A program made the translations under genes and the position numbers. 64,000 bases of DNA from Acidimicrobiia bacterium (lineage in GTDB: Bacteria > Actinomycetota > Acidimicrobiia > Spongiisociales > ZC4RG35), in assembly GCA_035249605.1 (NCBI GenBank), contig DATFGI010000063.1, positions 65,196 to 129,195 of the forward strand, given 5' to 3'. The notes under the pieces were generated by a model. That model made no database searches, had not been told where the DNA came from, and worked only from the letters and a program-made list of their open reading frames with translations. Shown here in pieces: positions 4,556-27,983 of this stretch; the stretch's first letter is position 1; each line of letters opens with the position of its first letter.

Positions 4556-4639
4556 AGCCCCCAAACCCAGGCCCCCCAAACCAAGGCCCCCCAACCCAGG
4601 GTTCGCACCACCAATTCTGGTGGTACCAATCCTGGGTTA
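4556..4639. repeat. REP-like composite palindrome (core type 3) preceded by a triplicated left arm
   Basis: Element CAACCCAGGGTT-CGC-ACCACCA-ATTC-TGGTGGT-ACCAATCCTGGGTTA at 4592-4639. Upstream lie three ~15-nt units CCCCCAAACCCAGG / CCCCCCAAACCAAGG / CCCCCCAACCCAGGG. Confidence 0.75.
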
Positions 4640-12249: not shown

Positions 12250-13061
12250 TCACGGCGGTCTCGATCAACGGAGAGGTGTCTACCGCCGGGGTGCCAGTCA
12301 CCGACTCGTCGGTGCTGCGGGGAGACGCCTGTTTCGAGGTTCTGAGGTCCTATGCCGGCCGTCCTTTCGCTCTCGCCGAGCATCTCGACCGTCTCGCGGC
12401 CAGTGCGAAGATGATGGCTATCGAGCTCCCCGACCGCGAGGATCTCAGCCGGTGGGTGCGCGACTCCTCCGCCGAGCTCGGCGACGGTGCGGTCCGGGTG
12501 GTCGTCACCCGGGGCTCGGCATTGCCCGGCATCGACGAACCCTCCAATGTGATCGTCTTCGGCCACAGCTGGGAGCGGGGCCCCGATGTGGCAACACTTC
12601 TGCCGGTAGAGGCTCCGTGGCACGCGGCCGGAGCGGAATGGGACCTCGCCGGAGCCAAGGTGACCTCCTATGCCCCCAACATGGCCGCAGGGCGCCGGGC
12701 GCGGGAGACCGGCTACGACGATGCCCTCCTCGTCTCCAGGGATGGCATGGTGCTCGAGGGCCCGACGTTCTCGGTGGCGTGGGTGGTCGACGGTGTGATG
12801 GAAACCCCCGGTCTCGACCTGGGGATCCTCGATTCGATCACCCGTCGATTCGTCATCGATCTCGCATCGCGGCTCGGGTTGACGGTCAATGAGGGCAGAT
12901 GGCAGCTGAGTCGTCTCGACGAGGCGTCGGAGGTCATGGCATTGTCGACCATCCGCGAGGTGCAGGCGGTGGGTGCGGTGGGCACCACCCGTTTCGTGCC
13001 GGGACCGGTGACCCAGGATCTGGCCGTGGCATTCGCCTCATTGGTGACAGAATCCGATTAG
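12246..13061 (+). CDS. Class IV aminotransferase (branched-chain aminotransferase / aminodeoxychorismate lyase family)
   Basis: 271 aa with a GTGA overlap onto the nadE stop. RGDACFEVLRSY, HLDRL and EGPTFSVAWV segments are typical of fold-type IV PLP enzymes. Confidence 0.8.
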   Translation: MITAVSINGEVSTAGVPVTDSSVLRGDACFEVLRSYAGRPFALAEHLDRLAASAKMMAIELPDREDLSRWVRDSSAELGDGAVRVVVTRGSALPGIDEPSNVIVFGHSWERGPDVATLLPVEAPWHAAGAEWDLAGAKVTSYAPNMAAGRRARETGYDDALLVSRDGMVLEGPTFSVAWVVDGVMETPGLDLGILDSITRRFVIDLASRLGLTVNEGRWQLSRLDEASEVMALSTIREVQAVGAVGTTRFVPGPVTQDLAVAFASLVTESD

Positions 13062-13095
13062 GGAACCCTTCGGCGCTACGGTTCGTTGCGTGCTC

Positions 13096-13611
13096 ATGAG
13101 AATCCGTCTCATTGTGCTTCTCGCAGTCATGGTCGCCCTGGCGGCCTGCACCGGGGACGACCCCGAGCTCTCCACCGACTCGACCATCGTCACCGGTGGC
13201 ACCAACGCCTCCTCGCCCACCACCTCGACGACCGGGGACGGTGGTGCCGGAACCAACGTGTCCCCCTCGACGACTCTGGCCGGCCAGAGTGTCGACAGCT
13301 ACGAGGTCATTGCCACCATTCCCAACGACCGCGGCGTCTCACAACACATCGTCATCCCCAACGGGGCCTACACGGACGTCGACTTGGAGAACTTCGTGAT
13401 CGACCTGATCGAGTCGAACTCCGACCTCTACGGTGCCGAGATCTTCGACGACGCCGAAGCTGCGGCCGCCTTCGCCGTCGAGCCCGATCAGCGCAGCGAG
13501 GACCAGATCGCCCTCATCGAGCGGCACCACTTCGTCTCGCTGGTGGGGAGGGAACGGATCGAGTTCCGCGGCCCGTTCGCCGAGTTCCCCGGCGGTGCCA
13601 TCGGCAGCTGA
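13096..13611 (+). CDS. Secreted lipoprotein, function unknown
   Basis: MRIRLIVLLAVMVALAAC signal peptide with a lipobox, followed by a T/S/P-rich linker. A GTG at 13090 is an alternative start. Confidence 0.65.
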   Translation: MRIRLIVLLAVMVALAACTGDDPELSTDSTIVTGGTNASSPTTSTTGDGGAGTNVSPSTTLAGQSVDSYEVIATIPNDRGVSQHIVIPNGAYTDVDLENFVIDLIESNSDLYGAEIFDDAEAAAAFAVEPDQRSEDQIALIERHHFVSLVGRERIEFRGPFAEFPGGAIGS

Positions 13612-13613
13612 TC

Positions 13614-15020
13614 TCAGGTCAGGAACGCGGCAGTCAGCAGAAATCCGCCGAAGCCGAGGGCGTCGGTGATGAGCGTGAGGAAGATGGTCGAGGCAAGTGC
13701 GGGGTCCTGCCCCATCCTTCGCAGCACCAAAGGGATGGCACTTCCGGCGAGAGATGCGATCGTCAGGTTGACCACCACGGCTATCGCCACCGCGGCTGCG
13801 ATTCTCCAGATGGGGGTTGTGCCGTGATCCATGAATCCGGAGGCCATCAGGAGTGTGGCGACCAATGAGGCGACGGTGGCGAGGATGAACCCGTTCAGCA
13901 CGCCGATTCGCACCTGACGTCCGAGGATGCCGCGGACCTGTGAGCCGGGGACGCTGTCATTGCCCAGGCCGCGGACCATGACGGCGAGGCTCTGCTGGCC
14001 GCTGTTGCCACCGAGGGTGGCCACGACGGGCATGAGGGCAGCCAGGATGGGGAGCTCTGAGATGACGCCGGTGAGTTGTTCGACTATGAGCGCGACGATC
14101 AACGCCAGCGTCAGGTTCAACATCAGCCAAGGTGAGCGGGACCTCACCGAGGTGCCGATCGCCGTGTAAACCGTCTCCTCGACACCGGCGCCCACCGAGA
14201 CGGCGAAGTCCTCGGTTGCCTCGTCTTGGACCGCCTCGATCACCGCCTCGGTGGTGACCATCCCGAGCAGGCGGCCGTCGTCGTCGGTCACCGGGATCCC
14301 GAATAAGTGGTATCGCTGGGCGAGGTCGGCCACCTCCTCACGGTCGGTGAGAGTGCCCACCGAGATCGGGTCGGGCACCATGACGTCGCCGAGGGGGGAC
14401 CCGGGGCGGCGGAACACCAGGTCCCGGAACGAGATCACACCCTGCAGATGGTCCTCGTCGTCCACCACGTAGACATAGGAGAGATCCTCGTACTCGTCGT
14501 GGAGTTGTCTGATCCGCTCGATCGCCTCACCGGTGGTCAGACCCAGGGGAAGGGCGGCGATCTCGGTGGTCATCAAACCCCCTGCCGTGTCGGGTGGGTA
14601 GAGGAGGAGATCGCGTATCTCATCCTCGGCCTGGTCGCTCATCGCGGCGAGCACGTCCTCGCTCACATCCGGGTCGAGCTCGCCGAGGATGTCGGCGGCG
14701 GCCTCGCTGGGCATCTCGCTCAGTGCGGCGGCGAGATCCGCCAGCGGGTAGTTCTCCAGGAGCTCCACGGCCAGCTCGGGCGAGATCTCCTCGAGAATCT
14801 CGGCGGCGTCCGATGGAGGTAGCTCGGCGAGGAGCTCGGCGGCGTCGGCCTCGTCGAGCTGCTCGAGGATGTCGGCGGCGTCACCGGGGGTCGCCTGGGC
14901 GAGCGCCTCCCACTCCTCGCGATTTGCGTCGAGGTAGTCGGCCACCTGATCGTGGTCGCGGCGCGCCACGGCGAGGAGCTGACGTGCAAGTTGACGCGGG
15001 CTTCTGAGTCGAAGTCTCAC
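13614..15020 (-). CDS. mgtE: Magnesium transporter MgtE
   Basis: 468 aa. Acidic MgtE N-domain, a CBS pair (VYVVDDEDHLQGVISFRDL, IPVTDDDGRLLGMVT) and a C-terminal 5-TM MgtE domain. Confidence 0.92.
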   Translation of the reverse strand: MRLRLRSPRQLARQLLAVARRDHDQVADYLDANREEWEALAQATPGDAADILEQLDEADAAELLAELPPSDAAEILEEISPELAVELLENYPLADLAAALSEMPSEAAADILGELDPDVSEDVLAAMSDQAEDEIRDLLLYPPDTAGGLMTTEIAALPLGLTTGEAIERIRQLHDEYEDLSYVYVVDDEDHLQGVISFRDLVFRRPGSPLGDVMVPDPISVGTLTDREEVADLAQRYHLFGIPVTDDDGRLLGMVTTEAVIEAVQDEATEDFAVSVGAGVEETVYTAIGTSVRSRSPWLMLNLTLALIVALIVEQLTGVISELPILAALMPVVATLGGNSGQQSLAVMVRGLGNDSVPGSQVRGILGRQVRIGVLNGFILATVASLVATLLMASGFMDHGTTPIWRIAAAVAIAVVVNLTIASLAGSAIPLVLRRMGQDPALASTIFLTLITDALGFGGFLLTAAFLT

Positions 15021-15066
15021 TGTTGACCCCGGCGACGATGAACCGGGACCAGCGTACTTCCCCGAA

Positions 15067-15543
15067 TCAGCCCTGGTAGGGACGTACCGCCCTGACCTCG
15101 ACGGTCATGGTGCCGACCGGCGCCTCGTACTCCACCTGGTCGCCGACCGTGCTGCCCAGCAACGCGGCGCCAAGTGGGCTGGCGGGCGAGGCGAGAAGGA
15201 CCCCGGGCACCTTGTTCTCCTGGGGAGCGACGAAGTAATCCAGCTCGTCGCCATCGGAGTCGACCACCGTGACCACGCATCCGATCTCGACCCGGCCGGT
15301 GTCTTCCACTTCTCGGACCTCCGCGGTGTGGATCAGGTGCTCCAGCTTGCGGATCCGCGCCTCCATCAGCCCCTGGTCGTTCTTGGCCGCGTCATAGTCG
15401 GCGTTCTCTCGGAGATCGCCATGCGAGCGCGCCTCGGCGATGCGATCCTCGATCTCGCGGCGACCCTCGGTCCGCAGCTGGTCGAGCTCCTCTTCGAGCT
15501 TGGCCAGTGCCGCCGGGGTCAGGAATGTGGTCTCTGCGCTCAT
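15067..15543 (-). CDS. greA: Transcription elongation factor GreA
   Basis: 158 aa from ATG 15543. The LTPAALAKLEEELDQL...GDLRENADYDAAKNDQG coiled coil and C-terminal FKBP-like domain are typical GreA. Confidence 0.93.
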   Translation of the reverse strand: MSAETTFLTPAALAKLEEELDQLRTEGRREIEDRIAEARSHGDLRENADYDAAKNDQGLMEARIRKLEHLIHTAEVREVEDTGRVEIGCVVTVVDSDGDELDYFVAPQENKVPGVLLASPASPLGAALLGSTVGDQVEYEAPVGTMTVEVRAVRPYQG

Positions 15544-15605
15544 TTGGTTGTGGCGGACGGGCAAGGTTAAGCCTGACGCATGGGGTAGCGACAAAGCCGC
15601 ACACG

Positions 15606-15655
15606 CGAACCCAGGGTTCCCAGCGTCGCTCAGCGACGCTACGAACCCTGGGTTG
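15606..15655. repeat. REP-like composite palindrome, core type 1
   Basis: CGAACCCAGGGTTCCCAGCGTCGCTCAGCGACGCTACGAACCCTGGGTTG, identical over 50 bp to 27878-27927. Lies between the divergent greA and selD starts. Confidence 0.9.
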
Positions 15656-15715
15656 GGCGGTGGTCGTCGGCGGCGTCGGGCGGCGGCTGACCGTCGACCG
15701 GCTTAACTTCGCCGG

Positions 15716-16738
15716 GTGACAGAGATCCGTCTCACCAGATACAGCCACGGGGCCGGCTGAGCCTGCAAGCTCGGGGAAGCCGAGTTGGCCCAGGTCCTGG
15801 GTCCCGTGATCGACCATCCCGCCGCAACCCACCCCGATCTGAGTGTCGGTCTGGCCACCGGCGACGACGCCGGCGTCTATGCGCTGGGAGATGGTCGCGC
15901 CCTGGTGCAGACGGTGGACATCTTCACTCCGGTGGTGGACTCGCCGCGCGATTGGGGACGGATCGCGGCCGCCAACGCCCTCTCCGACATCTATGCAATG
16001 GGGGCGACACCACTCACCGCGCTTCAGTACCTGGCCTGGCCCCGCGACGAGCTGCCCTTCGCCGCGGCCAGCGAAGTGATCGCCGGGGGCATGGATGTGA
16101 TGGCCTCGGCGGGATGCACTGTGGTGGGCGGTCACTCCATCGATGGGCCCGAGCCGACTTACGGCTTTGCCGTCACCGGCACGGTCGACCTCGACAGAGT
16201 GGTGACCAACTCCGGGGCTCACCCCGGGGATGTGCTGGTGTTGACCAAGGCACTGGGGATGGGGGTCATCACCACGGCCATCAAGCGAGGGACCTGCCCA
16301 CCGGATCTCGCCGCGGAGGCGATCGATCTGATGGCGGCACTCAACGAAAGGGCCGGTGCGGCCCTCTGGGCGCACCGGGCATCGGCGGCGACCGACGTCA
16401 CGGGCTTCGGCCTGCTCGGGCATCTCCGCGAGATCTGTCGTGCTTCTCACGTGGGTGCTTGGGTCGAGCTGGCCTCGGTGCCGATCCTCGATGGGGTCGG
16501 CGACCTCCTCGCGATGGGAATGTGGGCTGGAGGGTCGGAGCGGAACCGCCGCTCCATCGAGCCCGACCTGGAAAGTGATGTCGACCCCGAGCTCATCCGT
16601 CCGCTACTCGACGCCCAGACCTCCGGTGGCCTCCTGGTCGCATTGCCCGAGGGCCAGGTCGGTGGCTATCTGGAAGCGGTCCCCGGGGCGACCCGCATCG
16701 GTGTCTGCACCGCGGACGAGGTCATCAGAGTGGGATAG
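15716..16738 (+). CDS. selD: Selenide, water dikinase (selenophosphate synthetase) SelD, selenocysteine-containing; TGA 15758-15760 read as Sec
   Basis: GTG 15716 is the first start after in-frame TAA 15704-15706. It gives VTEIRLTRYSHGAG-U-ACKLGEAELAQVLG..., in frame with the track ORF (15785-16738). This matches the SelD catalytic loop (E. coli IRLTQYSHGAGCGCK). The rest is a PurM-like AIR synthase fold (DDAGVY, DIFTPVVD, GGHSID). Confidence 0.85.
15765..15789 (+). promoter_or_regulatory. Candidate bacterial SECIS stem-loop downstream of the selD UGA
   Basis: GCAAGCTCGG-GGAAG-CCGAGTTGGC. Nine of 10 positions pair, including one G-U. The upper stem CTCGG/CCGAG begins about 10 nt after the UGA. 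The apical loop is G-rich. Confidence 0.5.
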
Positions 16739-16784
16739 CCTGCGTGTCGCCCCATGGCGGGCGTCCCGGGTCACATCTCCCCCC

Positions 16785-17213
16785 TCATGGTGCGGAGTCA
16801 GGCTCCGGCTCGCCGCCCTCCGCGGCGATCCCCAGCCGAGCGATGTAGCGATTCCAGCCCTCGGTGTGGATTCCCACCTCTTCGGCAGGCAGGCCGCGGT
16901 GGGTCAGTCGAAGCCGCGTCCCCGAACCTTCGGGACGAAGTTCGATCTCGACGGTCGACGCACCGGGTGGAAGCTCGGGATGCTCTTCCCAACCCCAGGT
17001 GAAGACGACACTCCGGTTCGGTACCAGCTCCACGAAGCGCCCGCCGGCTGTCGCCCCGTTGGGCATGGCGATAGCGAGCGCGCCACCCGGCCGCGGCTCG
17101 AGTTCGACACCGACGCCCTGCCAGCGCGCCCACTTGGAAGGGTCGGTCAGGTACTCGTAGACCACCGAGGGTGGAGCCGCGATGACCCGCTCAACGACTA
17201 TCGGATCGCTCAT
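16785..17213 (-). CDS. SRPBCC/AHSA1-family protein
   Basis: 142 aa. VERVIAAPPSVVYEYLTDPSKWARW is typical of Aha1/START-like SRPBCC proteins. Overlaps the end of the upstream ArsR gene by 23 nt. Confidence 0.8.
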   Translation of the reverse strand: MSDPIVVERVIAAPPSVVYEYLTDPSKWARWQGVGVELEPRPGGALAIAMPNGATAGGRFVELVPNRSVVFTWGWEEHPELPPGASTVEIELRPEGSGTRLRLTHRGLPAEEVGIHTEGWNRYIARLGIAAEGGEPEPDSAP

Positions 17214-17517
17214 CCGAGGTGTCCTTCTCTATCGTCTCCGCCAACTGGTCGAGCGTGTCGGCCCACATCGCCTCCAGCACGAGACGCAGCGAGCCGAGCC
17301 GTTCCCGGTCGGCTCGATACCAGCGTCGATTGCCCTCTCGCCGGACGCTGACCAGACCCGCCTCGCGCAGAACGCCGAGATGTTGGGACACCGCACCAAA
17401 GGTCACGTCGAAGTGGGCAGCGATGTCACCAGCCGACATCTCGTCGGCCCAAACCAGGGCGAGGATCTCACGGCGTCGGGGCTCAGCGATCACCTGAAGG
17501 GCATCCACCACGAGCAT
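17191..17517 (-). CDS. ArsR/SmtB-family transcriptional regulator
   Basis: 108 aa. Winged-helix motif ALQVIAEPRRREILALV...SAGDIAAHFDVTFGAVSQHLGVLREAGLV. Confidence 0.88.
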   Translation of the reverse strand: MLVVDALQVIAEPRRREILALVWADEMSAGDIAAHFDVTFGAVSQHLGVLREAGLVSVRREGNRRWYRADRERLGSLRLVLEAMWADTLDQLAETIEKDTSDERSDSR

Positions 17518-17585
17518 TTTAGTTCATATTGAAATACGGGCGAGGCCGAGATATAGTCGGCGCTTAAATAGATCAAGGAGACCGA

Positions 17586-18020
17586 GTGATGGGCGATTAC
17601 GCGATCAAGGCACAATTGTCCGCACGGTGCCCTCAGGACGAGGTCAGACGATGGCTGGACAGCCCCGCCGGCATCGCCGGCTGGTGGTCCGACCGGGTCG
17701 AAGGGGCGGCAGCCTCGGTCGGGGACCGGTTCCGGGTGAGCTTTCCCACCACACCCGTAGTTTTCGAGCTCGTCGTGGAAGAGACCTCGGACCAGCTGAT
17801 CGACTGGCACGTGCCCGAGAGCCCGCCCTGGTGGAAGGGAACTCACATAGTGTTCGAGCTGTCGAGCGGCGACGGGGAGACCACGCTGCTATTCACCCAC
17901 CGGGGTTTTGACCCCGAAGATCCCATCATTCAGGTCATCACACCGGCGTGGGTCCGCTTCCTCGACAACCTGGTCGCGGTGGCCGAGTCTGGAAAGCCGC
18001 GCCCGGCCGTCGTCAACTGA
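17586..18020 (+). CDS. SRPBCC/AHSA1-family protein (second paralog, divergent from arsR)
   Basis: 144 aa with a START-like fold signature (WWSDRVEG...FRVSF...TLLFTHRGF). AAGGAG RBS at 17574-17579. Confidence 0.8.
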   Translation: MMGDYAIKAQLSARCPQDEVRRWLDSPAGIAGWWSDRVEGAAASVGDRFRVSFPTTPVVFELVVEETSDQLIDWHVPESPPWWKGTHIVFELSSGDGETTLLFTHRGFDPEDPIIQVITPAWVRFLDNLVAVAESGKPRPAVVN

Positions 18021-18098
18021 CGGAACGGCCGTCCAAGAGCTGACCGCCTCGATCCGGCGGCCTCATCAAATCGTCGGATTCAGGCTTTACTTGTTGGG

Positions 18099-18521
18099 GT
18101 GACCCCCGACCAGCGTCTCCACGAGATCGCCGAGGCCCTGTCCATCCCCAGAGTGCAGCGTCACATCTTTCTGTGCGCCGACCAGACCAATCCCAAGTGT
18201 GCTCCGCGTGAGGAGACCAACGCGCTTTGGCGTCATCTCAAGACCCGCCTCAAGGAGGTGGGGGCTTCTTCGGCGCCGCCCAAGTGGCAGGGTGACATGG
18301 ACCACGATCCCGCTCCGGAGGTCCCGGGGACCGGGACGGTGCTGCGCACCAAGGCCGACTGTCTACGCATTTGTGAGCAGGGCTGCATCGCAGTGGTCTA
18401 CCCGGAGGGCACCTGGTACGCCGGTTTGGACATCGAGAAGTTGGACCGGATCATCGACGAGCACCTCATCGGCGGCACCCCGGTCGAAGACCTGGTCTTT
18501 GCTGTGGGCGACCTGAGGTGA
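18099..18521 (+). CDS. Thioredoxin-like [2Fe-2S] ferredoxin-domain protein
   Basis: 140 aa. HIFLCADQTNPKCAP ... CLRICEQGC cysteine pattern and VVYPEGTWY are typical of the (2Fe-2S) ferredoxin / DUF1271-like family. Confidence 0.72.
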   Translation: MTPDQRLHEIAEALSIPRVQRHIFLCADQTNPKCAPREETNALWRHLKTRLKEVGASSAPPKWQGDMDHDPAPEVPGTGTVLRTKADCLRICEQGCIAVVYPEGTWYAGLDIEKLDRIIDEHLIGGTPVEDLVFAVGDLR

Positions 18522-19420
18522 GCCCCTGGCTGAGACGTCTCGGCTGGCTGGCACTGTTGTGGAGGCTGTTCGGGCCCCGGATCCAGCCCAAGTTCGAGCC
18601 TCCCCAGGAGCACCCGCTCCGGATCCCGGGCCGCACCGTGTTCGTCGGCGATGACGAGTATCTGGTCCGGGAGATGGGTGTCGGCGACGGGGCCCCGATC
18701 CTCCTCGTCCACGGGCTGGCCGGGGCCTCTCTCACCGAGTGGTATCAGATCGCGCCGAAGCTGGCTGTGGAACGAAGGGTGATCCTGGTGGATCACCGCG
18801 GGCACGGGCTGTCCACGCGTGGTGATCTTCGTTTCGAGGTGGAGGACGATGCCGACGATCTCGTCGGGGTCCTCGATGCTCTCGGTGTCGGCGAGGCCGA
18901 CGTGGTCGGCTACTCGATGGGTGGGGTGATCGCCCAAGCCATGGCCTCCCGACACCCGGGACGGGTGCGCAAGCTCGCCTTGATCGCGACCTTTGCCTCA
19001 CATTCGGAGGGGTATCGCTGGCTGCGAAGGGTCGGCGCCCTGATCAGCCGGGCCTGGGAGCGACTCGTCGGGTTCGGCACGCCGGAGGTGCGCAGCGGTT
19101 ACCTGATAGCGCGGGGTGCGGTCCGGCCCGAGCACGCCCGCTGGATGTGGCGGGAGACCCTGCGTCATGACCTGGAGAGTGCTGCTCAAGCCACCTTCGC
19201 CCTGCTCCGTTTCGACTCCAGGGACTGGGTGGGCCGTCTCGGCGTGGAGACCATGGTCGTGGTCCCCACCGAGGATTTCCTCGTGCCCGCCGGTTGGCAA
19301 TACCAGCTCGCCGACGCCATCCCCGGCGTCGAGCTGGTCGAGGTGGAGGGGGCGCGCCACGAGCTGGTCTGGACCCACGCCGACCGGGTCGCCGACGAGC
19401 TGCGGCGTTTTCTCGCGTGA
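18518..19420 (+). CDS. Alpha/beta-fold hydrolase
   Basis: 300 aa with a GTGA overlap onto the ferredoxin stop. HG oxyanion motif LLVHGLAG, nucleophile elbow GYSMGG, and C-terminal GARHEL histidine. Confidence 0.85.
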   Translation: MSPWLRRLGWLALLWRLFGPRIQPKFEPPQEHPLRIPGRTVFVGDDEYLVREMGVGDGAPILLVHGLAGASLTEWYQIAPKLAVERRVILVDHRGHGLSTRGDLRFEVEDDADDLVGVLDALGVGEADVVGYSMGGVIAQAMASRHPGRVRKLALIATFASHSEGYRWLRRVGALISRAWERLVGFGTPEVRSGYLIARGAVRPEHARWMWRETLRHDLESAAQATFALLRFDSRDWVGRLGVETMVVVPTEDFLVPAGWQYQLADAIPGVELVEVEGARHELVWTHADRVADELRRFLA

Positions 19421-19425
19421 AACCA

Positions 19426-19534
19426 CGAACCCGGGGTTCCTGGCGCCGGATACGGCGCGACGAACCCGGGGTTGCGCGGCTCCCACGAACCCGGGGTTCC
19501 TGGCGCCGGATATGGCGTGACGAACCCGGGGTTG
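19426..19534. repeat. Two tandem REP-like composite palindromes, core type 2 (period 60 bp)
   Basis: CGAACCCGGGGTT-CCTG-GCGCCG-GATA-CGGCGC-GA-CGAACCCGGGGTTG at 19426-19474. It repeats at 19486-19534 with two C-to-T changes in the core stem. Confidence 0.9.
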
Positions 19535-19569
19535 CGCGGTTGGGCGTCCTGCCGTATACGGTCCTCTCG

Positions 19570-20013
19570 ATGCCACGACGTGCCGCGATCGCGCTCATCG
19601 GGCTTCTCGGCGCCGCCTGCGCGCCCGGTCAACCCGACACGGTGGCCCCGAGCACGACCGTGATCGCGGGATCCTCCACCTCGGTGCCGCCGACCACCGC
19701 AGCAATGGCTCCGGCGGCCACCACGACCGTCGAGCCGGCGTCAACGACCACCGCGAGCGCGGACCGCTACGAGATCGTCGACGGGGAGTTCAAGGGACCG
19801 GGCTCGTTCGCGGTGACGGTCGGTGACACCTTCCGGATCGAGGTTGTTTCGGATCGCGGTGGGGAGCTCCACGTTCACGGCTTCGACCTGCTGTTCGAAC
19901 TGGCTGCCGGCGAGGTCACGCTGATCGAGGTCGTCGCCACCGCACCCGGGATCTACGAGGTCGAGTTGGAGGGCAGCCACGCCCATCTCTTCGACATCGA
20001 GGTCGGTGGTTGA
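19570..20013 (+). CDS. Secreted lipoprotein, beta-rich, possibly cupredoxin-like; His-rich C-terminal part
   Basis: Starts at ATG 19570 (MPRRAAIALIGLLGAAC lipobox). T/P/A linker, then ~85 aa with HVHGFD and GSHAHLFD. The upstream part of the track ORF (19294-) merely translates the REP repeats. Confidence 0.6.
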   Translation: MPRRAAIALIGLLGAACAPGQPDTVAPSTTVIAGSSTSVPPTTAAMAPAATTTVEPASTTTASADRYEIVDGEFKGPGSFAVTVGDTFRIEVVSDRGGELHVHGFDLLFELAAGEVTLIEVVATAPGIYEVELEGSHAHLFDIEVGG

Positions 20014-21302
20014 TCCTCGCTCACGCCATCGGTGGCCGCACCGATCTGCCCATCCCGACATCGATCCTCCTCTTCGCGTCGGCGGCCGTCCTGGTGATCA
20101 CCTTCCTCGGCCTGTCCCTCATCTGGCCCCGGCCCCGTCTCCAGGAAGGGCCCCGCTACGAGGAGGGTCTGGTGGCAATCCCTACCCGGCCCGTCTTCGG
20201 CCTCCTGGGGTTGCTCGCGCTGCTCCTCGTGATCGGACAGGTGGTGCCCGACTTGCTCGACCTGGAGCGAGAGACCCTCCGGGCCACCATCGCTCCGGTC
20301 ACGGTCTGGGTGGTCTTCTGGCTGGCAGTGCCTTTCCTCGGTGCGCTGTGGGGCAATTGGTACACCGACCTCAACCCCTGGCGCGCACTGGGGCGCCTCG
20401 GGATCGGGAGGATGGAGCGGATCGGACTCCCGCACTCGCTCGGTGTCTGGCCCGCCACGGTCACCCTGGTCTGCTTCGCCTGGCTCGAGCTGATCTACCC
20501 CGCGTCGGGCGATCCGGTCGTCCTCGGTATCGCCGCCATCATCTACACGGGGTGGCTACTCGGGTGGATGGCGATGGTGGGCAGGGAGACCGCCCTCGCC
20601 GTGTTCGACGTCTTCACCCCCTACAACCGGCTCATCTCGGCGATCTCCCCCCTGGGAAGACGAGACGACGGTCGGCTGGTCTGGCGTGGATGGCTCCGCT
20701 CCCTGCCGGTGCTTCCCGAGTGGCCCGGGTTGTGGGCCTTCGTGGCCGCGATGATCGGAACAGTCAGCTACGACGGGGCTTCGGGTGCGGCTTGGTTCCG
20801 CAACCTAACCGGTGGGATCGGCGAGACGACCGCAGGCGCCAGCTTCCTGCTGGTCGCAGTGGTGGGCGTGGTCATGTTCGGCTATTACCTGGCCTGCTGG
20901 CTGGCGGCCCGGAGCAGCGGCGGCGACTGGAGCCCGGACCGGGTGGCCCGGAGATTCGCCCATACCCTGGTGCCCATCGGTCTGGCCTACGCGGTCTCTC
21001 ACTACTTCACGCTGATCTTGTTCGAGGGACAGCAGGTGCTGGCCGCGGTGTCCGATCCGTTCGGGTTGGATTGGGACCTGTTCGGTACCGCCGATCGGCG
21101 TGTCCAGTTCTTCCTCACCTCATCGACGGTGATTTGGTTGCTCCAGGTCGGGTTTATCGTCATAGGGCACATCGTCGGGGTGATCCTCGCCCATGACCGG
21201 GCACTGCTCGACTTCGGGCCGGATGCGGTCAGGTCGCAGTATGCGATGCTCGGTCTGATGATCGCTCTGACCAGTCTGGGCCTGATGATTCTCTCCGGAT
21301 GA
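20010..21302 (+). CDS. Polytopic integral membrane protein (about 10-12 TM), function unknown
   Basis: 430 aa with a TTGA overlap onto the lipoprotein stop. Hydrophobic throughout. No family recognised by eye. Confidence 0.7.
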   Translation: MILAHAIGGRTDLPIPTSILLFASAAVLVITFLGLSLIWPRPRLQEGPRYEEGLVAIPTRPVFGLLGLLALLLVIGQVVPDLLDLERETLRATIAPVTVWVVFWLAVPFLGALWGNWYTDLNPWRALGRLGIGRMERIGLPHSLGVWPATVTLVCFAWLELIYPASGDPVVLGIAAIIYTGWLLGWMAMVGRETALAVFDVFTPYNRLISAISPLGRRDDGRLVWRGWLRSLPVLPEWPGLWAFVAAMIGTVSYDGASGAAWFRNLTGGIGETTAGASFLLVAVVGVVMFGYYLACWLAARSSGGDWSPDRVARRFAHTLVPIGLAYAVSHYFTLILFEGQQVLAAVSDPFGLDWDLFGTADRRVQFFLTSSTVIWLLQVGFIVIGHIVGVILAHDRALLDFGPDAVRSQYAMLGLMIALTSLGLMILSG

Positions 21303-22198
21303 CCGAATTGCACTACCCCGCCACCGTCGAATTGGCCCCGGCCACCCGCTCCCGGCTGGCCGCGTATGTCGCGTTGACCAAGCCCAGGATCATCGAGCTG
21401 CTTCTGATCACCACGGTTCCGGCGATGGTCCTCGCCGCCCGAGGCTGGCCCGGCACTTGGCTGGTGGTGGCCACGCTCATCGGGGGCACCCTTTCCGCGG
21501 GCGGGGCGAACACCCTCAACATGTTCTACGACCGCGACATCGACGAGGTGATGCGACGCACCAGCTCACGGCCGTTGGCTCGGCACGAGGTCTTGCCCCG
21601 CAACGCCATGATCTTCGGGATCGCGCTGGGGATCGCCGGCTTCGCCTGGCTCTGGGTGTTCACCAACCTCCTCGCCGCCCTGATCTCCACCGCCGCCCTC
21701 GTCTTCTACGTCCTCGTCTACACCCGGATGCTGAAGCGGGTCACGGTGCAGAACATCGTCATCGGCGGGGCTGCCGGGGCCGCGCCCGCCCTGGTGGGAT
21801 GGGCCGCGGTCACCGGAACCGTCTCGGTCCCGGCATGGGTGCTCTTCCTCATCGTCTTCTACTGGACACCGCCCCACTTCTGGGCACTCGCCGTCCGCTA
21901 CCGGGACGACTACGCCGCCGCCGGGGTCCCCATGCTCCCAGTGGTCGCAGGGATAGAGACGACCACCAGGCGCATGCTTCTCTACACCGCACTCATGGTG
22001 GGAGTCTCGCTGCTCCTGGTGCCCCTGGCGACCATGTCCTGGGTCTATCTGGCGGCCGCGGTGATCCTGGGCGGTTGGTTCCTCTGGGACACCTGGCGTG
22101 TCGTCGCCGACCCGGGTCAGGCGATGCGGCTGTTCACCACCTCCACCGTGTACCTCTCCGCCCTGTTCGCCTCGGTCATGCTCGACGTGTTGCTGTGA
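21299..22198 (+). CDS. ctaB: Protoheme IX farnesyltransferase (heme O synthase) CtaB
   Basis: 299 aa with an ATGA overlap. UbiA-family motifs LTKPRIIELLLITT and NMFYDRDIDEVMRRTSSRP. Confidence 0.92.
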   Translation: MTELHYPATVELAPATRSRLAAYVALTKPRIIELLLITTVPAMVLAARGWPGTWLVVATLIGGTLSAGGANTLNMFYDRDIDEVMRRTSSRPLARHEVLPRNAMIFGIALGIAGFAWLWVFTNLLAALISTAALVFYVLVYTRMLKRVTVQNIVIGGAAGAAPALVGWAAVTGTVSVPAWVLFLIVFYWTPPHFWALAVRYRDDYAAAGVPMLPVVAGIETTTRRMLLYTALMVGVSLLLVPLATMSWVYLAAAVILGGWFLWDTWRVVADPGQAMRLFTTSTVYLSALFASVMLDVLL

Positions 22199-23019
22199 GT
22201 CGCCTCCTCGCCGCCGCAGTCTGCCTGCTGACGCTGGCCGCGTGCTCGGGGAATGCCGACACCGACGGGCGAATCGCGTCGAGCCCGGGCACGATCGGGG
22301 TGGGAGAGCAGCGCATCCTGGTGGCGGTCACCGATCGCCCCACCGGTGGTCTGGTGGCCACACCGGACATCACCCCGGTGGCCATCCTTCGTGACGACAT
22401 CGGCTCTCCCCTCGGCGAATACGAAGGCGAGTTCGTCTGGACGATCCCCGATGTCCACGGGCTCTACGCCTTCCAGGTGGACATCCCCGGGCCGGCCACT
22501 TATCAACTCACCATCGACGCCGGGTCCCTCGGCGAGCTGGGGCCCATCGGGTTCGTCGCCGCTGAGGACCCGATCCAGGTCACGGTGGGTGATCAGGCGC
22601 CGCAGTCGGACACCCGGACTCTCGAAGACGCCGGAATGGACGAGCTCACCTCGGATCCCACCCCCGAGGAGTTCTTCTATCAGATGTCGGTGGCCGAGGC
22701 GGTGAGCTCGGGGCCGTCGGTGATCGTCTTCGCCACACCGGAGTGGTGCACCTCACGGGCGTGCGGTCCCATGCTCGACCAGGTGGGTGCCATCGCGCCC
22801 GACTACCCCTCGCTCAACTTCGTGCACGTCGAGGTCTACGAGAACATCCAGGTGCCCGATCCCAACGACCTGGTCCTGGTGCCAGCTGTCGAGGAGTGGG
22901 GGCTTCCCACCGAGCCCTGGCTATACGTCATCGACGACGCCGGAACCGTGACCGCCGCGTTCGAGGGCGCCGTCTCCGACGATGAGTTGCAGACGGCCCT
23001 GGACGCGGTGGCGGGTTGA
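22195..23019 (+). CDS. Lipoprotein with C-terminal thioredoxin-like fold (atypical WCxxxxC motif)
   Basis: GTG 22195 (GTGA overlap with the ctaB stop) gives VSRLLAAAVCLLTLAAC, a signal peptide with a lipobox. The C-terminal VIVFATPEWCTSRACGPMLD resembles the TlpA/Sco-type thioredoxin fold. The first 246 codons of the track ORF (21457-) overlap ctaB out of frame. Confidence 0.7.
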   Translation: MSRLLAAAVCLLTLAACSGNADTDGRIASSPGTIGVGEQRILVAVTDRPTGGLVATPDITPVAILRDDIGSPLGEYEGEFVWTIPDVHGLYAFQVDIPGPATYQLTIDAGSLGELGPIGFVAAEDPIQVTVGDQAPQSDTRTLEDAGMDELTSDPTPEEFFYQMSVAEAVSSGPSVIVFATPEWCTSRACGPMLDQVGAIAPDYPSLNFVHVEVYENIQVPDPNDLVLVPAVEEWGLPTEPWLYVIDDAGTVTAAFEGAVSDDELQTALDAVAG

Positions 23020-23651
23020 CCGGCTCGGCCACCGGTCTCCCGACCGACGAGGCCGCACGTCTCCTCCGGCGGTCCCTCCTCCTCGAGTACGCCACCATCG
23101 GCTGGAATGTGGGCGAGGCCGTGCTCACCATCGCACTGGGCTCGGTGGCCGGGTCCCTCGCCCTGATCGGGTTCGGCACGGTGTCGGTAGTCGAAGTCTT
23201 CGCGTCGTCGGTGGTTGTGTGGCATCTCCGCTCTCCCGACGACCAGCATCACGTCCGCCGCACCCGGGTGGCGCTTCGCCTCATCGCCGGGGCATTCCTG
23301 GTCCTTTCGGTCGCCCTGGTCGTCGCCGCCATCGGCGACCTCGTCTCGGGGCGCCGAGCCGGCGAGTCTCATTGGGGGATCGCCTACCTGGCCATCACCG
23401 CCCTGGTCATGTTCGGCCTCGCCCGGGCCAAGCGGCGTCTGGCCGACAGCCTCGACTCGGGACCGCTGCGCTCGGAGGCAACCGTCACCTTTCTCGATGG
23501 CATCCTCTCCACATCCACCCTGGTCGGACTGGCTCTCAACGCCTACCTCGGAGTGTGGTGGGCGGATCCCCTCGCCGGTCTGCTGGTGGCTGTGGCCGCC
23601 GCCAACGAGGCCCGCCAGACCTGGGCGGAGGCCGGCGAGCTCGCCGAGTAA
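23016..23651 (+). CDS. Cation-efflux (CDF-like) transmembrane-domain-only protein
   Basis: 211 aa with a TTGA overlap. LEYATIGWNVGEAVLTIALG..SLALIGFGTVSVVEVFAS resembles the N-terminal TM bundle of cation diffusion facilitators. No cytoplasmic domain. Confidence 0.6.
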   Translation: MTGSATGLPTDEAARLLRRSLLLEYATIGWNVGEAVLTIALGSVAGSLALIGFGTVSVVEVFASSVVVWHLRSPDDQHHVRRTRVALRLIAGAFLVLSVALVVAAIGDLVSGRRAGESHWGIAYLAITALVMFGLARAKRRLADSLDSGPLRSEATVTFLDGILSTSTLVGLALNAYLGVWWADPLAGLLVAVAAANEARQTWAEAGELAE

Positions 23652-23670
23652 GCGGTATGCCCTCAAACCG

Positions 23671-23720
23671 GCAACCCAGGTTTCCCACCACCAAAAACCT
23701 GGGGTAGGAACCCTGGGTTG
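23671..23720. repeat. REP-like composite palindrome, decayed core type 3
   Basis: GCAACCCAGGTTT-CCCACCACCAAAAACCTGGGGTAG-GAACCCTGGGTTG. Lies between the CDF-like gene and ctaC. Confidence 0.7.
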
Positions 23721-23797
23721 GCGTGATCAGGCGGTCGCGCCGGGTGGAGACGGCCAAGTTGGGCGCTACTTCTCAATGTTCGTATGATGCCGTCCCG

Positions 23798-24862
23798 ATG
23801 GCTCCACTTCGCCGACGCCTGACCCGTCTCGCCGCAATCGTCGGCCCGGCGGTCCTCCTCGCCGGCTGCGCCATCATCGAGGTCGACGACAACCCGCTCA
23901 CCACCCTCGAGCCGGCCGGTCCCAACGCCGAGCAGATCGACGGGCTGTTCTGGATGGTCTTCTGGATCGCCACCGGGGTCTTCGCGTTGGTCATGGGCGG
24001 ACTGCTGGTCATCGTGTTCTTCTTCAGGGACCGGGGCAATGGTGATGCCAAGGAGCCGAAGCAGCTTCACGGCAATCCCAAACTCGAGGTGGCGTGGACG
24101 GTGATCCCGGCCCTCATCCTCGCCGCCATCGCCGTCCCCTCGGTGTCGTCCATCTTCGAGCTGACCGAGTGCAGCTCCGATGCGATGGAGATAGAGGTCA
24201 TCGGTCACCAGTGGTGGTTCGAGTACTACTACCCCGACCACGACTTCCGCACCGCCAACGTGATGGTGATCCCGACAGGACAGGAGATCTGCGCCGTGAT
24301 GACCTCCGACGACGTGATCCACAGCTTCTGGGTTCCCGCCCTCGCCGGGAAGAGGGATGTGATCCCGGGTCAGACCGAGATACTCCCGTTCCAGGCTGCC
24401 GAGCCCGGTGACTATTGGGGTCACTGCGCCGAGTTTTGCGGTCTCTCCCACTCCCTGATGCGAGCCCGGGTCCAGGCGCTCCCGCGAGCCGAGTTCGACT
24501 CCTGGGCTGCCGCGCAACAGGAGCCGACCCATCTTCCCGCCGAGGGGGAACCGGGGTACGAGGGCTATCAGGTGTACCTGAACAAACAGTGCATCCAGTG
24601 CCATCAGGTCCGCTTCGACGAAGCGGAGGCCTCGGTCCTGGTCCCGCCTGAGGCCTTCCACGGGCCCGAGCTGACCCACTTCGCCTCCCGTGACGTCTTC
24701 GCCGGCGCCACGCTCCCCGAGGAGGGCGAAAGCCACGATGAGGCCTTGGCCCGCTGGTTGGCGGACCCGCCGACGGTCAAGCCGGGCAGCTACATGCCCG
24801 ATCTGGCATTGACGGCACAGGAGATCGACGCACTCGTCGTGTGGCTGGAGGGCAACGAATGA
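23798..24862 (+). CDS. ctaC: Cytochrome c oxidase subunit II with fused C-terminal cytochrome c (caa3-type)
   Basis: Starts at ATG 23798 (signal/lipobox LLAGC). CuA motif HSFWVP...GHCAEFCGLSHSLM. C-terminal heme c site CIQCH. Confidence 0.92.
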   Translation: MAPLRRRLTRLAAIVGPAVLLAGCAIIEVDDNPLTTLEPAGPNAEQIDGLFWMVFWIATGVFALVMGGLLVIVFFFRDRGNGDAKEPKQLHGNPKLEVAWTVIPALILAAIAVPSVSSIFELTECSSDAMEIEVIGHQWWFEYYYPDHDFRTANVMVIPTGQEICAVMTSDDVIHSFWVPALAGKRDVIPGQTEILPFQAAEPGDYWGHCAEFCGLSHSLMRARVQALPRAEFDSWAAAQQEPTHLPAEGEPGYEGYQVYLNKQCIQCHQVRFDEAEASVLVPPEAFHGPELTHFASRDVFAGATLPEEGESHDEALARWLADPPTVKPGSYMPDLALTAQEIDALVVWLEGNE

Positions 24863-26919
24863 CCGCCACCGCCGAACGACCCACCACCACGATCTTCCGT
24901 CGCCCCAAGACGACATCGGGGCTCTGGGGCTGGGTCACCACCGTCGACCACAAGAAGATCGGGATCATGTACGGCTACGCAGCCTTCACGTTCTTCATCC
25001 TCGGTGGCGTGGAGGCCCTGCTCCTCCGCATCCAGCTGGCTCAGGCCGACGCGGAGTTCCTCACCGCCGGTGCCTACAACGCCCTGTTCACCATGCACGG
25101 CACCACCATGATCTTCTTGTTCATAATGCCGATCTCGTCGGCTTTCATGAACTATCTGCTCCCGCTTCTCATCGGAGCCCGCGACGTCGCCTTCCCCCGC
25201 CTCAATGCCCTCTCGTGGTGGATCTTCTTCTTTGGTGGCATCTTCTTGTACAGCACCTTCATCTTCGGGACCTCCTTGCCCCCGATCAGCCCCGACGGCA
25301 TCACCGGCAACCTCGCCCCCGGCGGAGGTCCGGGGTCGTTCAATTTCCTCGCCGTCTCACCGGACGGGGGGTGGTTCGGCTACCAGCCCAATGCGGGCCC
25401 GCTGTACTCACCCGGCACCGCCATGGACTTCTGGGCGCTGGGCCTGCAGCTGCTCGGCCTGGCTTCGCTGGTGTCTGCGATCAACTTCATCGTCACCACG
25501 TTCAACATGCGAGCCAAGGGGATGCGTCTGCTCCGCATGCCCGTCTTCGCCTGGATGACGACCGTGGTCGCCTTCCTCCTCCTCTTCTCGCTCCCAATCA
25601 TCGCCGTGGCTCTCTTCATGGTGACCTTCGATCGGCAGTTCGGGACCCTCTTCTTCGCCCCATATGGGGGCGGTGACCCCATCCTCTGGCAGCACCTGTT
25701 CTGGCTGTTCGGCCATCCCGAGGTCTACATCCTGATCCTCCCTGCGATGGGGATCGTCTCCGAGATCCTGCCCACGTTCTCCCGCAAGCCTCTGTTCGGC
25801 TACTCCGCGGTGGTGTTCGCCGGCGCCGCCATCGCCTTCCTCGGCTTCGGTGTCTGGGCCCACCACATGTTCTCCTCGGGGATCACGCCGGTGGCGCAGG
25901 CGGCGTTTGGCCTGGCAACCATGACCATCGCCATCCCGACCGGGATCAAGATCTTCAACTGGATGGGGACGATGTGGGGCGGGCGATTACAGCTGAAGAC
26001 CCCGATGCTGTTCGCCATGGGCTTCCTGGCGATGTTCACCATCGGTGGGCTGTCCGGTGTGACCCACTCGATCGTGCCTGCCGACTGGCAGCAGACCGAC
26101 ACCTATTACATCGTGGCCCATTTCCACTATGTGATCTTCGGAGGCTCCGTCTTCGGCCTCTTCGGAGGCGCCTATTACTGGTTCCCCAAGCTGTCGGGGA
26201 GGGTGATGAGCGAGAGACTGGGGAAGACGCATTTCTGGTTGATGTTCATCGGCTTCAATCTCACCTTCGCCCCGATGCACTGGCTCGGCCTGCAAGGGAT
26301 GGTCCGTCGCACCTGGCAATACGCTCCTGAGGCCGGGCTCGAGTTCTGGAATTTGATGGAGACGATCGGCGCTTTCATCATCGCGCTCAGCATCGCGACT
26401 TTCATCTACAACTGGTGGCATAGCCGACGCCACGGCGAGCCCTCCGGTCTCGACCCGTGGGACGCCCGCACCATCGAATGGTCGATCCCCAATCCCACCC
26501 CTGAGTACAACTTCGCCCAGGCGCCGGTGGTGACCCGTCTCGACCATTTCTGGCATATGAAGTACGACGAGGACGAGGAGGGCCGCGCCGTCCGCAAGCC
26601 GGACGCCGACCAGATCATCACCGGTCTCGAATACGACGGGCTCAACCCGACGAGCCCGATCCATCTCCCCGCCCCTTCCTACTTCCCCGTGATCGTGGGG
26701 CTCGGCCTCCCCATCGCCTTCTACGGGGTCATCTACCACGAGGCGATGTGGGGCAAGGCGCTCATCATCATCGGCGTGCTGATCACGCTCTCGGCGCTGA
26801 TCGGTTGGGCGATCGAGCCCCTCGAGGAGCCGGTGGCCGGCCACGAGGAGCACGAGGACGACCCGCGCACCGATCTCGAGGAGCCCGAGCCGGTGGGCGA
26901 CGATGAGGTGATCCGGTGA
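24859..26919 (+). CDS. ctaD: Cytochrome c oxidase subunit I (14-TM form)
   Basis: ATG 24859 (ATGA overlap with the ctaC stop). Canonical GWVTTVDHKKIGIMY, WFFGHPEVYILILP and HHMF motifs. C-terminal extension has two extra TM helices (IHLPAPSYFPVIVGLG...) and an acidic tail. Confidence 0.96.
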   Translation: MTATAERPTTTIFRRPKTTSGLWGWVTTVDHKKIGIMYGYAAFTFFILGGVEALLLRIQLAQADAEFLTAGAYNALFTMHGTTMIFLFIMPISSAFMNYLLPLLIGARDVAFPRLNALSWWIFFFGGIFLYSTFIFGTSLPPISPDGITGNLAPGGGPGSFNFLAVSPDGGWFGYQPNAGPLYSPGTAMDFWALGLQLLGLASLVSAINFIVTTFNMRAKGMRLLRMPVFAWMTTVVAFLLLFSLPIIAVALFMVTFDRQFGTLFFAPYGGGDPILWQHLFWLFGHPEVYILILPAMGIVSEILPTFSRKPLFGYSAVVFAGAAIAFLGFGVWAHHMFSSGITPVAQAAFGLATMTIAIPTGIKIFNWMGTMWGGRLQLKTPMLFAMGFLAMFTIGGLSGVTHSIVPADWQQTDTYYIVAHFHYVIFGGSVFGLFGGAYYWFPKLSGRVMSERLGKTHFWLMFIGFNLTFAPMHWLGLQGMVRRTWQYAPEAGLEFWNLMETIGAFIIALSIATFIYNWWHSRRHGEPSGLDPWDARTIEWSIPNPTPEYNFAQAPVVTRLDHFWHMKYDEDEEGRAVRKPDADQIITGLEYDGLNPTSPIHLPAPSYFPVIVGLGLPIAFYGVIYHEAMWGKALIIIGVLITLSALIGWAIEPLEEPVAGHEEHEDDPRTDLEEPEPVGDDEVIR

Positions 26920-27542
26920 GTGACGTCGCCCACGACGATGTGCTCGCCCACCACGATGAGCATGAGTCGACCGGCATCGAGAATCGCAAGCTGGGGATGT
27001 GGGTCTTCCTCAGCTCGGAGTTCTTGTTCTTCGGCGCCCTCATCACCAACTACCTGCTCTACTCGAACCGGGGAGGCTTCGAAGGGATCTACCCCGCCGC
27101 GATCTACGACATCCCCTTCACCTCGGTCAGCTCGTTCGTCCTCCTGATGTCGTCGCTCACCATGGTGCTGGCCCACAACGCGTTGAGCCGGGAGGACCAG
27201 AACGGTGCCCGCACCTGGCTCTTCGCCACCGCAGCCCTCGGATCGATATTCCTCGGCGGCCAGGTCTTCGAGTTCACCGAGTTCATCGTCGAGCACGACA
27301 TGACCCTCTCCACCAACCCGGCGGCGTCGGCGTTCTACGTGCTCACCGGTTTCCATGGCACCCACGTCGCCATCGGGGTGATCATGCTGCTCTCTCTTTG
27401 GGGAATCTCACGACGCCAGGGCGGCCTGAGTGACAAGCGGGGGCTCAACCTCGAGCTGGTCGGGCTCTACTGGCACTTCGTCGACATCATCTGGATCGTG
27501 ATCTTCACCGTCGTCTACCTGCTCTCGGTGCCCCCTGCATGA
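26916..27542 (+). CDS. ctaE: Cytochrome c oxidase subunit III
   Basis: 208 aa with a GTGA overlap. KLGMWVFLSSEFLFFGALI, FHGTHV and YWHFVDIIWIVIF motifs. Confidence 0.92.
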   Translation: MSDVAHDDVLAHHDEHESTGIENRKLGMWVFLSSEFLFFGALITNYLLYSNRGGFEGIYPAAIYDIPFTSVSSFVLLMSSLTMVLAHNALSREDQNGARTWLFATAALGSIFLGGQVFEFTEFIVEHDMTLSTNPAASAFYVLTGFHGTHVAIGVIMLLSLWGISRRQGGLSDKRGLNLELVGLYWHFVDIIWIVIFTVVYLLSVPPA

Positions 27543-27558
27543 CCACCACCCACCAGGC

Positions 27559-27873
27559 ATGAGCAGCGAACAGCCCCATCACCCCACTCCCGGGCAGTAC
27601 TGGAAGATCGCCGCCTTCCTCGCTCTGGTCACCGCGGCCGAGGTGGCCATGTTCTACATCGACCGTCAGCTCGAGCTGGGCTTCTTCAACTCCGCCATCC
27701 TGATCGTCCTATCCGCGGTCAAGTTCCTGGTGGTGATCGGCTGGTTCATGCACGTCCGTTTCGAGAAGCCCATCATCAGCCGTTTCTTCGGCGCCGGGTT
27801 CGCCCTCGCCATCATCCTCTACCTGGTCGTCCTCTCCGCCCTCGGTGTGGTCGCAGCCCGCGGCGGGGCGTGA
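27559..27873 (+). CDS. ctaF: Cytochrome c oxidase subunit IV (prokaryotic COX4 family)
   Basis: 104 aa with 3 TM helices. YWKIAAFLALVTAAEV and KFLVVIGWFMHVRFE are typical of bacterial caa3 subunit IV. Confidence 0.78.
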   Translation: MSSEQPHHPTPGQYWKIAAFLALVTAAEVAMFYIDRQLELGFFNSAILIVLSAVKFLVVIGWFMHVRFEKPIISRFFGAGFALAIILYLVVLSALGVVAARGGA

Positions 27874-27877
27874 TCAG

Positions 27878-27927: not shown

Positions 27928-27983
27928 CGCGTTGATCGGCCCTCGTCTTCGCCATCCCGGCCTGCCGTGTTAGAACAGTGGGG

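Follow-up and report, generated by a model that had tools for sequence, protein, structure and literature searches.

The 64,000-nt stretch of DNA analysed here (the window; 66% G+C), which derives, judging by exact protein matches and the names of ctaF homologues, from a soil population of Acidimicrobiia, contains a series of short composite palindromes in the spaces between its genes, and the question they raise is what these units are and how they came to be dispersed. In each unit two copies of an 11-bp arm, AACCC-N-GGGTT, bracket a small hairpin-forming core. A first-pass annotation described seven loci with this shared design, and every coordinate and sequence that it gave was correct when re-read from the sequence. 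The motif is in large excess: AACCCNGGGTT occurs 14 times in the window compared with 0.05 expected from shuffles, and there are six instances of the pair GAACCCNGGGTT-N-AACCCNGGGTT, where none is expected. There are eight units at the seven loci, each 47–51 bp long and all eight located outside coding sequences (CDS), in agreement with the intergenic location first proposed. A covariance model (R1), built from 42 related units and run over the whole window with filters off, recovered exactly these eight units (E values from 1e-9 to 1e-22), and since its next-best match (E=0.077) falls within a CDS the census of the window is complete. The units are the longest inverted repeats of the window. 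Open reading frames that run across them are spurious, the arms appearing as NPGF in their translations.

Core type 1 (AGCGTCGCT-C-AGCGACGCT) is present at 15606–15655 (E 2e-22; −44.4/−47.9 kcal/mol), in the middle of the 172-bp spacer between the divergent greA (start 15543) and selD (start 15716) genes, and at 27878–27927 (E 1e-21), which begins 4 nt past the ctaF (COX4_pro) stop codon; the identity of these two units over the full 50 bp was confirmed. The same core type is found at 45007–45056 (E 4e-22; −46.7/−52 kcal/mol), a perfect hairpin on the minus strand that lies between convergent stop codons, 15 nt from that of a SpoU methylase gene and 10 nt from that of an M20 peptidase gene, and at 60218–60267 (E 8e-20; −36.2 kcal/mol) in the rpoB–rpoC spacer, where 15 nt separate it from the rpoB stop upstream and 79 nt from the rpoC start downstream. 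Core type 2 (GCGCCG-GATA-CGGCGC) is carried by the two members of a tandem array at 19426–19534, of which the first (19426–19474; E 7e-14) begins 5 nt past the stop of an α/β hydrolase gene, and the second (19486–19534; E 2e-9), differing from the first by two substitutions, is ∼40 nt upstream of a lipoprotein-like ORF. The unit with core type 3 (ACCACCA-ATTC-TGGTGGT), at 4592–4639 (E 7e-11; −35.9 kcal/mol), is located 22 nt past the stop of VIT1, which is on the minus strand, and upstream of an HTH gene; its left arm (4593–4603) is exact and its right arm has a single mismatch (AATCCTGGGTT). A type-3-like unit at 23671–23720 (E 6e-12; −34.7 kcal/mol), 19 nt past the stop of a cation-efflux gene and just upstream of ctaC (COX2), had been described as decayed, and does indeed have one mismatch in its left arm (AACCCAGGTTT), the right arm (23709–23719) being exact. 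No strand is assigned to any of the units. The flanking genes named in the annotation were substantiated by Pfam, which identified the neighbours as VIT1/HTH, GreA/SelD-like AIRS, α/β hydrolase, cation efflux/COX2, COX4_pro, SpoU/M20 and rpoB/rpoC.

Other features of the window were recorded in passing. Codon 15 of selD (15716–16738, plus strand) is an in-frame TGA in the context HGAG-U-ACK, which makes the product a selenocysteine-type SelD with its start at the GTG at 15716; in ORF lists the gene begins only past the TGA, at 15785. A hairpin directly after this TGA (CTCGG-GGAAG-CCGAG) could be a SECIS element. An unrelated inverted repeat at 39543–39593, 23 nt past the stop of a 5′-3′ exonuclease gene, pairs perfectly over 14 nt (CGTTCTGTGCGGGT / ACCCGCACAGAACG) to form a hairpin whose loop is 23 nt long. 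Upstream of rpoB, a stretch of ∼725 bp (56110–56833) contains no called gene, and stops interrupt each of the three forward frames that were checked; the rplJ–rplL genes that usually neighbour rpoB are missing, and ahead of it, on the other strand, is a gene encoding a VanW domain. Genes for the actinobacterial mismatch-repair nuclease NucS/EndoMS (43382–44527) and for a regulator of the WhiB family (48587–48862) fit an assignment to Actinomycetota.

The modal unit is 47 bp (11 + 25 + 11) with an arm-to-arm distance of 36 bp, and the units of Cellulosimicrobium (see below) form a 52-bp class with a longer core. The arm is an 11-bp self-palindrome, often embedded in CGAACCCNGGGTTCG, and the unit usually has C/G-G on each outer side; past 2–4 nt, no convincing conserved flank or tail was found outside the arms of the window units. 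The arms are 35–37 bp apart in 108 of 154 units, including those whose linkers fold poorly. Lone arms are rare: of 302 arms, 276 are paired with an exact arm and 11 with a degenerate one. A search of 1.4 Mb for self-palindromic 11-mers paired at 30–44 bp found none but AACCC-N-GGGTT.

The view that the whole unit can fold into a hairpin is supported by structure prediction, in which single window units gave −35 to −52 kcal/mol (z-scores of −4.6 to −10.6) on both strands, and the two tandem type-2 units folded jointly gave −79 kcal/mol. In a stack of 42 distinct solo units the consensus pairing comprises one outer pair, the 11 arm pairs, two further pairs, an unpaired 2×2 internal loop and a stem of 6–7 bp, closed by an apical loop of 3 nt (3–5 nt in the window cores), such that a single strand forms a hairpin of ∼21 bp with a small internal loop. 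Paired cells amount to 88.2% in these solo units, compared with 75.5% in shuffles, and the covariation score is 0.309 compared with 0.104 (reached by 0 of 500 shuffles), while controls in which the alignment was slid did not exceed 0.096; double changes occur at 11 pairs. As both pairing and covariation exceed those of shuffles, the hairpin itself, beyond the arms, is maintained. These data show that self-complementarity is kept by compensatory changes and is under selection.

The three core types of the window, which had been considered unrelated, are in fact length-matched variants of one design; on the plus strand most of the window cores end in (T/G)AC directly before the 3′ arm. By the TAG/GTAG asymmetry, a weak criterion, the window units have a single orientation on the plus strand. 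The same asymmetry was rejected as a general guide to polarity, as it could orient only 18 of 62 solo units.

A scan of reference genomes, one per species, for exact arms returned at least 111 loci, among which the invariance of the arms is partly imposed by the exact-arm search pattern. Among the matches listed, ∼80 loci are from MAGs labelled Acidimicrobiia, Acidimicrobiaceae or Actinomycetota, 22 are from eight Cellulosimicrobium assemblies, and a handful are from other phyla; the last are mostly different tandem repeats, at about the level expected by chance in 596 Gb. Judged by these sequences, the repeat has spread through the Acidimicrobiia and has a longer-cored variant in Cellulosimicrobium. 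The proposal that the arms are the constrained part, and that the centre need only be a hairpin, fits these data: units from well over 50 assemblies have both arms identical, with covarying core stems and a core identity of ∼45%. Cores of one genome share an identity of 0.76, compared with 0.45, a near-random value, for cores of different genomes (p=4e-32), showing that cores are homogenised within each genome by amplification or concerted evolution.

In other genomes neighbouring units share arms, forming arrays with a period of 35–37 bp. Many of the arms without an exact or degenerate partner are paired there with a different, non-self-palindromic arm, GAACCGTGGGC/GCCCACGGTTC. This second type lies 36–38 bp from canonical arms in 30 cases (1–2 for most control offsets, 15 at two periods) and starts or caps arrays (L003, L005, L020, L027, L063, L075, L093 and others); none is present in the window. 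The mixed arrays of canonical and second-type arms are BIME-like mosaics, and the two-unit tandem of the window likewise has a BIME-type arrangement. The units are scattered between genes and form hairpins, neighbours in tandem arrays have arms in common, and the cores are specific to each genome; the REP/BIME-like character that the annotation had proposed holds up. Blastn found no match in plasmids or phages. A pattern scan of IMG/VR returned ten loci, nine of which are unrelated direct repeats in contigs of 49–58% GC, a count that leaves out the tenth locus, L206 (70% GC). Five of the phage contigs (L199, L200, L204, L205 and L208; ∼51% GC) have two 15-bp palindromes, GTAACCCAGGGTTAC, as operator-like direct repeats 41 bp apart, which are unrelated to the AACCC-N-GGGTT repeats. 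Rfam 15 gave no match at gathering thresholds; below threshold the best matches were to generic miRNA-precursor hairpins, followed by a few weaker matches to other families. A literature search found no mention of the arm sequence, and the 47–51 bp repeat is apparently undescribed.

Presence/absence polymorphism, which the annotation had suggested looking for in relatives, was found in the form of empty, filled and replaced orthologous sites. The syntenic relatives were reached via ctaF and hence were not chosen for the motif; sites are empty in them at four or five of the window loci. In L218 (ctaF 80% identical at the amino-acid level) the gene order is that of the window from greA to the rhodanese gene, and there is no unit between greA and selD, 3′ of the hydrolase gene, upstream of ctaC or 3′ of ctaF, nor elsewhere in 20 kb. 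An inverted repeat, AAGGTTAAGCC ... GGCTTAACTT, that brackets the greA/selD spacer of the window (15563–15573 and 15700–15709) is kept in L218 (∼143–155 and 207–218), where the unit is absent; possibly this repeat forms a regulatory structure, which the unit entered at the loop. The ctaF unit is present in L210–212 (ctaF 91%), where one pair of the stem has switched from T-A to C-G, a compensatory change, and in L213 (89%) and L214 (83%) the site is occupied by a decayed unit with a type-2-like core, the arms of which have altered to the still-palindromic AACCTCAGGTT. After ctaF in L216 (7400–7530) are two tandem copies of a different palindromic element, consisting of GTGCAC-based arms around a GCGCG-CTCAC-CGCGC hairpin; different repeat families have thus used one and the same site. 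Two Logan short-read contigs from the same population as the window, L116 and L117, end inside the ctaF unit. Across the syntenic stretches there is no recognisable unit in L218, L214, L216 or L213 and a single degenerate array in L217, whereas the matching 23 kb of the window hold five units at four loci, indicating that the units have expanded in the lineage of the window.

Elsewhere, L021 (94% amino-acid identity over a C-terminal segment of rpoB) has a 46-bp rpoB–rpoC spacer without a unit and carries a unit after rpoC. The rpoB–rpoC spacers of 80 metagenome relatives contain no arms, a result that says little on recent events because all of these relatives are ≤80% identical (amino acids) over the query segment. 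In L062 and L067 the unit is inverted relative to the same gene. L036 and L072, whose neighbouring genes are 67% identical at the amino-acid level, have in common a site that is old and vertically kept. The existence of such old sites means that part of the pattern could reflect conservation and gene conversion, not transposition. No recent filled/empty pair with alignable flanks was found among the relatives compared. These comparisons show that, at individual sites between genes, the lineage has acquired copies, replaced them and turned them round.

The proximity of the units to stop codons bears on whether they are primarily terminators or 3′-end stabilisers of mRNA, selected as such, with a factor of termination or RNA processing recognising the arm duplex; they would then be the Acidimicrobiia counterpart of TRIT, a sequence-conserved palindrome located near stops in another actinobacterial lineage (PMC3152330). 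We consider this decidedly unlikely. The hairpins are very stable, and of 56 units in co-directional spacers 39 are closer to the stop than to the other end (p=0.005; medians of 20.5 and 96.5 nt, respectively). The distance from stop to arm peaks at 7–17 nt, 60 of 102 stop-facing ends are within 25 nt, and the units start 3–25 nt past the stop codon and do not overlap the CDS end. E. coli REPs within 15 nt of a stop also affect translation (work cited in PMC12306157). Against a selected 3′-end role, units in co-directional, convergent and divergent spacers number 56, 20 and 18, respectively, compared with 378, 125 and 121 background gene pairs; as these proportions match, the units do not favour 3′ ends in themselves, although the spacer classes carry error because genes at the related loci were called by a crude GC3-based caller. 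The ∼19% of units between divergent starts, including that at 15606, are the same share as in the background, and one window unit lies within the normally co-transcribed rpoB–rpoC spacer. U-tract or A-tract flanks were found at a few copies only, and downstream flanks are not T-rich; a canonical Rho-independent terminator was rejected on these grounds, the units being GC-rich hairpins without a following U-tract. A terminator scan of 13000–31000 predicted six sites compared with 5.3 expected, none of which is at a unit; the terminator role that the annotation had proposed checking is not supported as the general function. Selection on the sense-strand RNA was likewise rejected, as G-U is not favoured over A-C on that strand (8 versus 17, p=0.11, the opposite direction). 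Furthermore, close syntenic relatives lack units at the same gene ends, and TRITs themselves overlap only 2–4% of mapped 3′ ends (bioRxiv 10.1101/2022.06.01.494293). A transcribed unit probably functions as a 3′ hairpin.

In anatomy and dynamics the units match REP/BIME/REPIN elements, and they could be true REPs or REPINs moved by a cognate RAYT (a Y1 HUH tyrosine transposase) that reads the single-stranded hairpin. The lack of target-site duplication is as expected for HUH enzymes, and REPs without a resident RAYT are documented (PMC6006769). A conserved 5′ guide tetranucleotide, GT[AG]G, stands at the foot of REP hairpins (PMC6006769); by eye GT[AG]G is found at the arm/core junction, on one strand, in ∼30% of solo units, and three window units read arm-C-GTAG-stem on the minus strand. 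However, the foot of the hairpin is (C/G)G-AACCC and lacks the tetranucleotide, and where GTAG is present (three of the eight window units, and a minority elsewhere) it is base-paired inside the stem. REP families normally co-evolve with their RAYT and differ between genera (PMC6006769), but here the arms span two classes of Actinomycetota. A cognate RAYT gene typically has REPs on its flanks, an arrangement called a REPtron. In accord with the annotation, Pfam finds no RAYT or other transposase in the window, in particular no Y1_Tnp domain among its proteins, and a phmmer search with E. coli RayT, although of low power, found no homologues in six-frame ORFs of the window and ∼130 loci (∼1 Mb). 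A gene flanked by two units in L025 was considered as a candidate RAYT and rejected, as by eye it is not transposase-like. Movement by a RAYT is, on balance, unlikely. An alternative, which we view as still less probable than either of the foregoing, is that the arms are double-stranded sites of a conserved dimeric host protein, held at a fixed 36-bp phase and serving chromosome organisation or regulation; candidates would be a nucleoid-associated protein, a gyrase-like enzyme or a LexA-like HTH protein. Each arm is a perfect dyad, often within the longer sequence given above, and the half-sites appear similar to the GAAC/GTTC half-sites of actinobacterial SOS boxes, but with a 5-nt spacer. 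The sharp 36-bp arm distance even across linkers that make poor hairpins, the near absence of lone arms and a placement that is independent of spacer type also favour such sites. The covariation of the core stem and the N-N complementarity in solo units, by contrast, point to selection on a folded single strand, copies are freely gained and lost between close relatives, and no candidate protein was identified. The narrow length distribution is explicable by common descent, as an indel in a palindrome needs a matching indel opposite. That the units are MITEs moved by a DDE transposase is highly improbable, even though the arms are terminal and inverted like terminal inverted repeats, the expansion is lineage-specific, and composite arrays elsewhere are bounded by GAACCGTGGGC...GCCCACGGTTC. 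Direct repeats of ≥5 nt in the flanks number 10 compared with 6.2 expected from a mismatched-pair control, and there are none of ≥6 nt; the unit is far shorter than typical MITEs, its self-palindromic ends are unlike any IS ends that we know of, and nearby there was no transposase in the window (Pfam) and no RayT homologue in ∼1 Mb of flanks.

We therefore favour the reading that the units are non-coding, non-autonomous palindromic repeats of the REP/BIME kind, which spread in trans and have constrained arms; this is probably correct. New copies would be made in trans, either by an enzyme encoded elsewhere, for which a RAYT-type protein is one candidate, or by host recombination and repair, and no mobilising enzyme was found in the window (Pfam) or in the flanks of units (∼1 Mb, RayT query). 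The arms would be what the copying machinery, or another conserved protein, recognises. Any two arms, each being identical to its reverse complement, form a direct and an inverted repeat at once, so that recombination or gene conversion via the arms could build arrays and delete, invert or swap cores; the cores would be interchangeable because they can be swapped in this way. Because an arm is self-palindromic, its 11-bp duplex would also look alike whether the DNA is linear or folded into the hairpin. The constancy of this duplex, and the status of the arms as both direct and inverted repeats, would account for arm-sharing arrays, core inversion and the replacement of a core at one site. Copies would persist in places that can bear a strong hairpin, namely intergenic DNA at some distance from the promoter and ribosome-binding site of the next gene, and it is the avoidance of these that would explain the closeness to stop codons. 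When transcribed, the hairpin would most likely block 3′ exonucleases or act as a partial pause or termination signal, and at ∼15 nt or less from a stop it may interfere with terminating ribosomes, an effect reported for E. coli REPs in work cited by PMC12306157. Such RNA effects would be a side effect or a secondary co-option, and not the reason the repeat exists. A more specific proposal is that the arms are the site of a non-RAYT protein conserved across Actinomycetota and, at the same time, a universal recombination handle by which cores are copied, inverted and exchanged like cassettes. This is possible, though we doubt it; if true, it would represent a REP-type system with a different mobilisation logic in two actinobacterial classes.

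REP-type repeats and their mobilising enzymes are well studied in Proteobacteria, and we know of no comparable characterisation in Actinomycetota, for which a literature search also returned none; nor did it find a paper joining REP, Actinobacteria and RAYT. If the mobiliser is not a RAYT it would constitute a new way of spreading palindromic repeats. The repeat makes a tractable system: the 11-bp arm duplex is defined and usable as bait, natural arm and core variants exist, lineages with and without the repeat suit comparative genomics, and Cellulosimicrobium is a cultured genus. The units break short-read assemblies and create spurious NPGF ORFs, which matters for the annotation of MAGs.

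Among known systems, Correia/NEMIS, ERIC, SMAG and RUP/BOX elements are also non-autonomous intergenic hairpin repeats with lineage-specific expansion, and some of them affect mRNA stability or processing. They are mostly longer (100–150 bp or more), have terminal inverted repeats with target-site duplications or other signatures, and occur in other phyla; to our knowledge none has the 11-bp arm sequence. Canonical terminators are scarce in Actinomycetota, where TRIT, the one conserved 3′ palindrome, is functionally unexplained, and we know of no description of its copy dynamics. TRIT resembles the units in being a sequence-conserved, largely bidirectional actinobacterial palindrome with no canonical U-tract and a tight position relative to stop codons, for which a duplex-binding factor has been proposed (PMC3152330). 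It differs in that it is reported to be confined to Mycobacterium and centred ∼8 nt before the CDS end (PMC3152330), whereas the present units begin past the stop; as TRIT is absent from Rfam, the two are set side by side by description and position, not by sequence.

The closest likeness is to the REP/BIME elements of Enterobacteria and the REPINs of Pseudomonas, which are likewise short, extragenic, imperfect palindromes in many copies. These occur as solo units and as mosaic tandem arrays, often just past stops, and form genome-specific families that are gained and lost between relatives without target-site duplication. The eight units in 64 kb conform to REPs in size and dispersal (21–65 nt, extragenic, multiple copies). 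They depart from the definition of a REP as a species- or genus-specific family, in that the cores are genome-specific but the arms are common to Acidimicrobiia and Cellulosimicrobium, and membership of a RAYT-linked REP family is not established. In contrast to REPs and REPINs, the units are composite, with two self-palindromic 11-bp arms around a small covarying hairpin; they have no GT[AG]G foot, and no RAYT was found in the DNA sampled; approximately one-fifth lie in divergent promoter spacers; and the arms are identical across the two lineages, where REPs normally diverge with their RAYT. What is unusual here is the combination of this composite design with arms common to two actinobacterial classes and with the exchange of cores at a fixed site.
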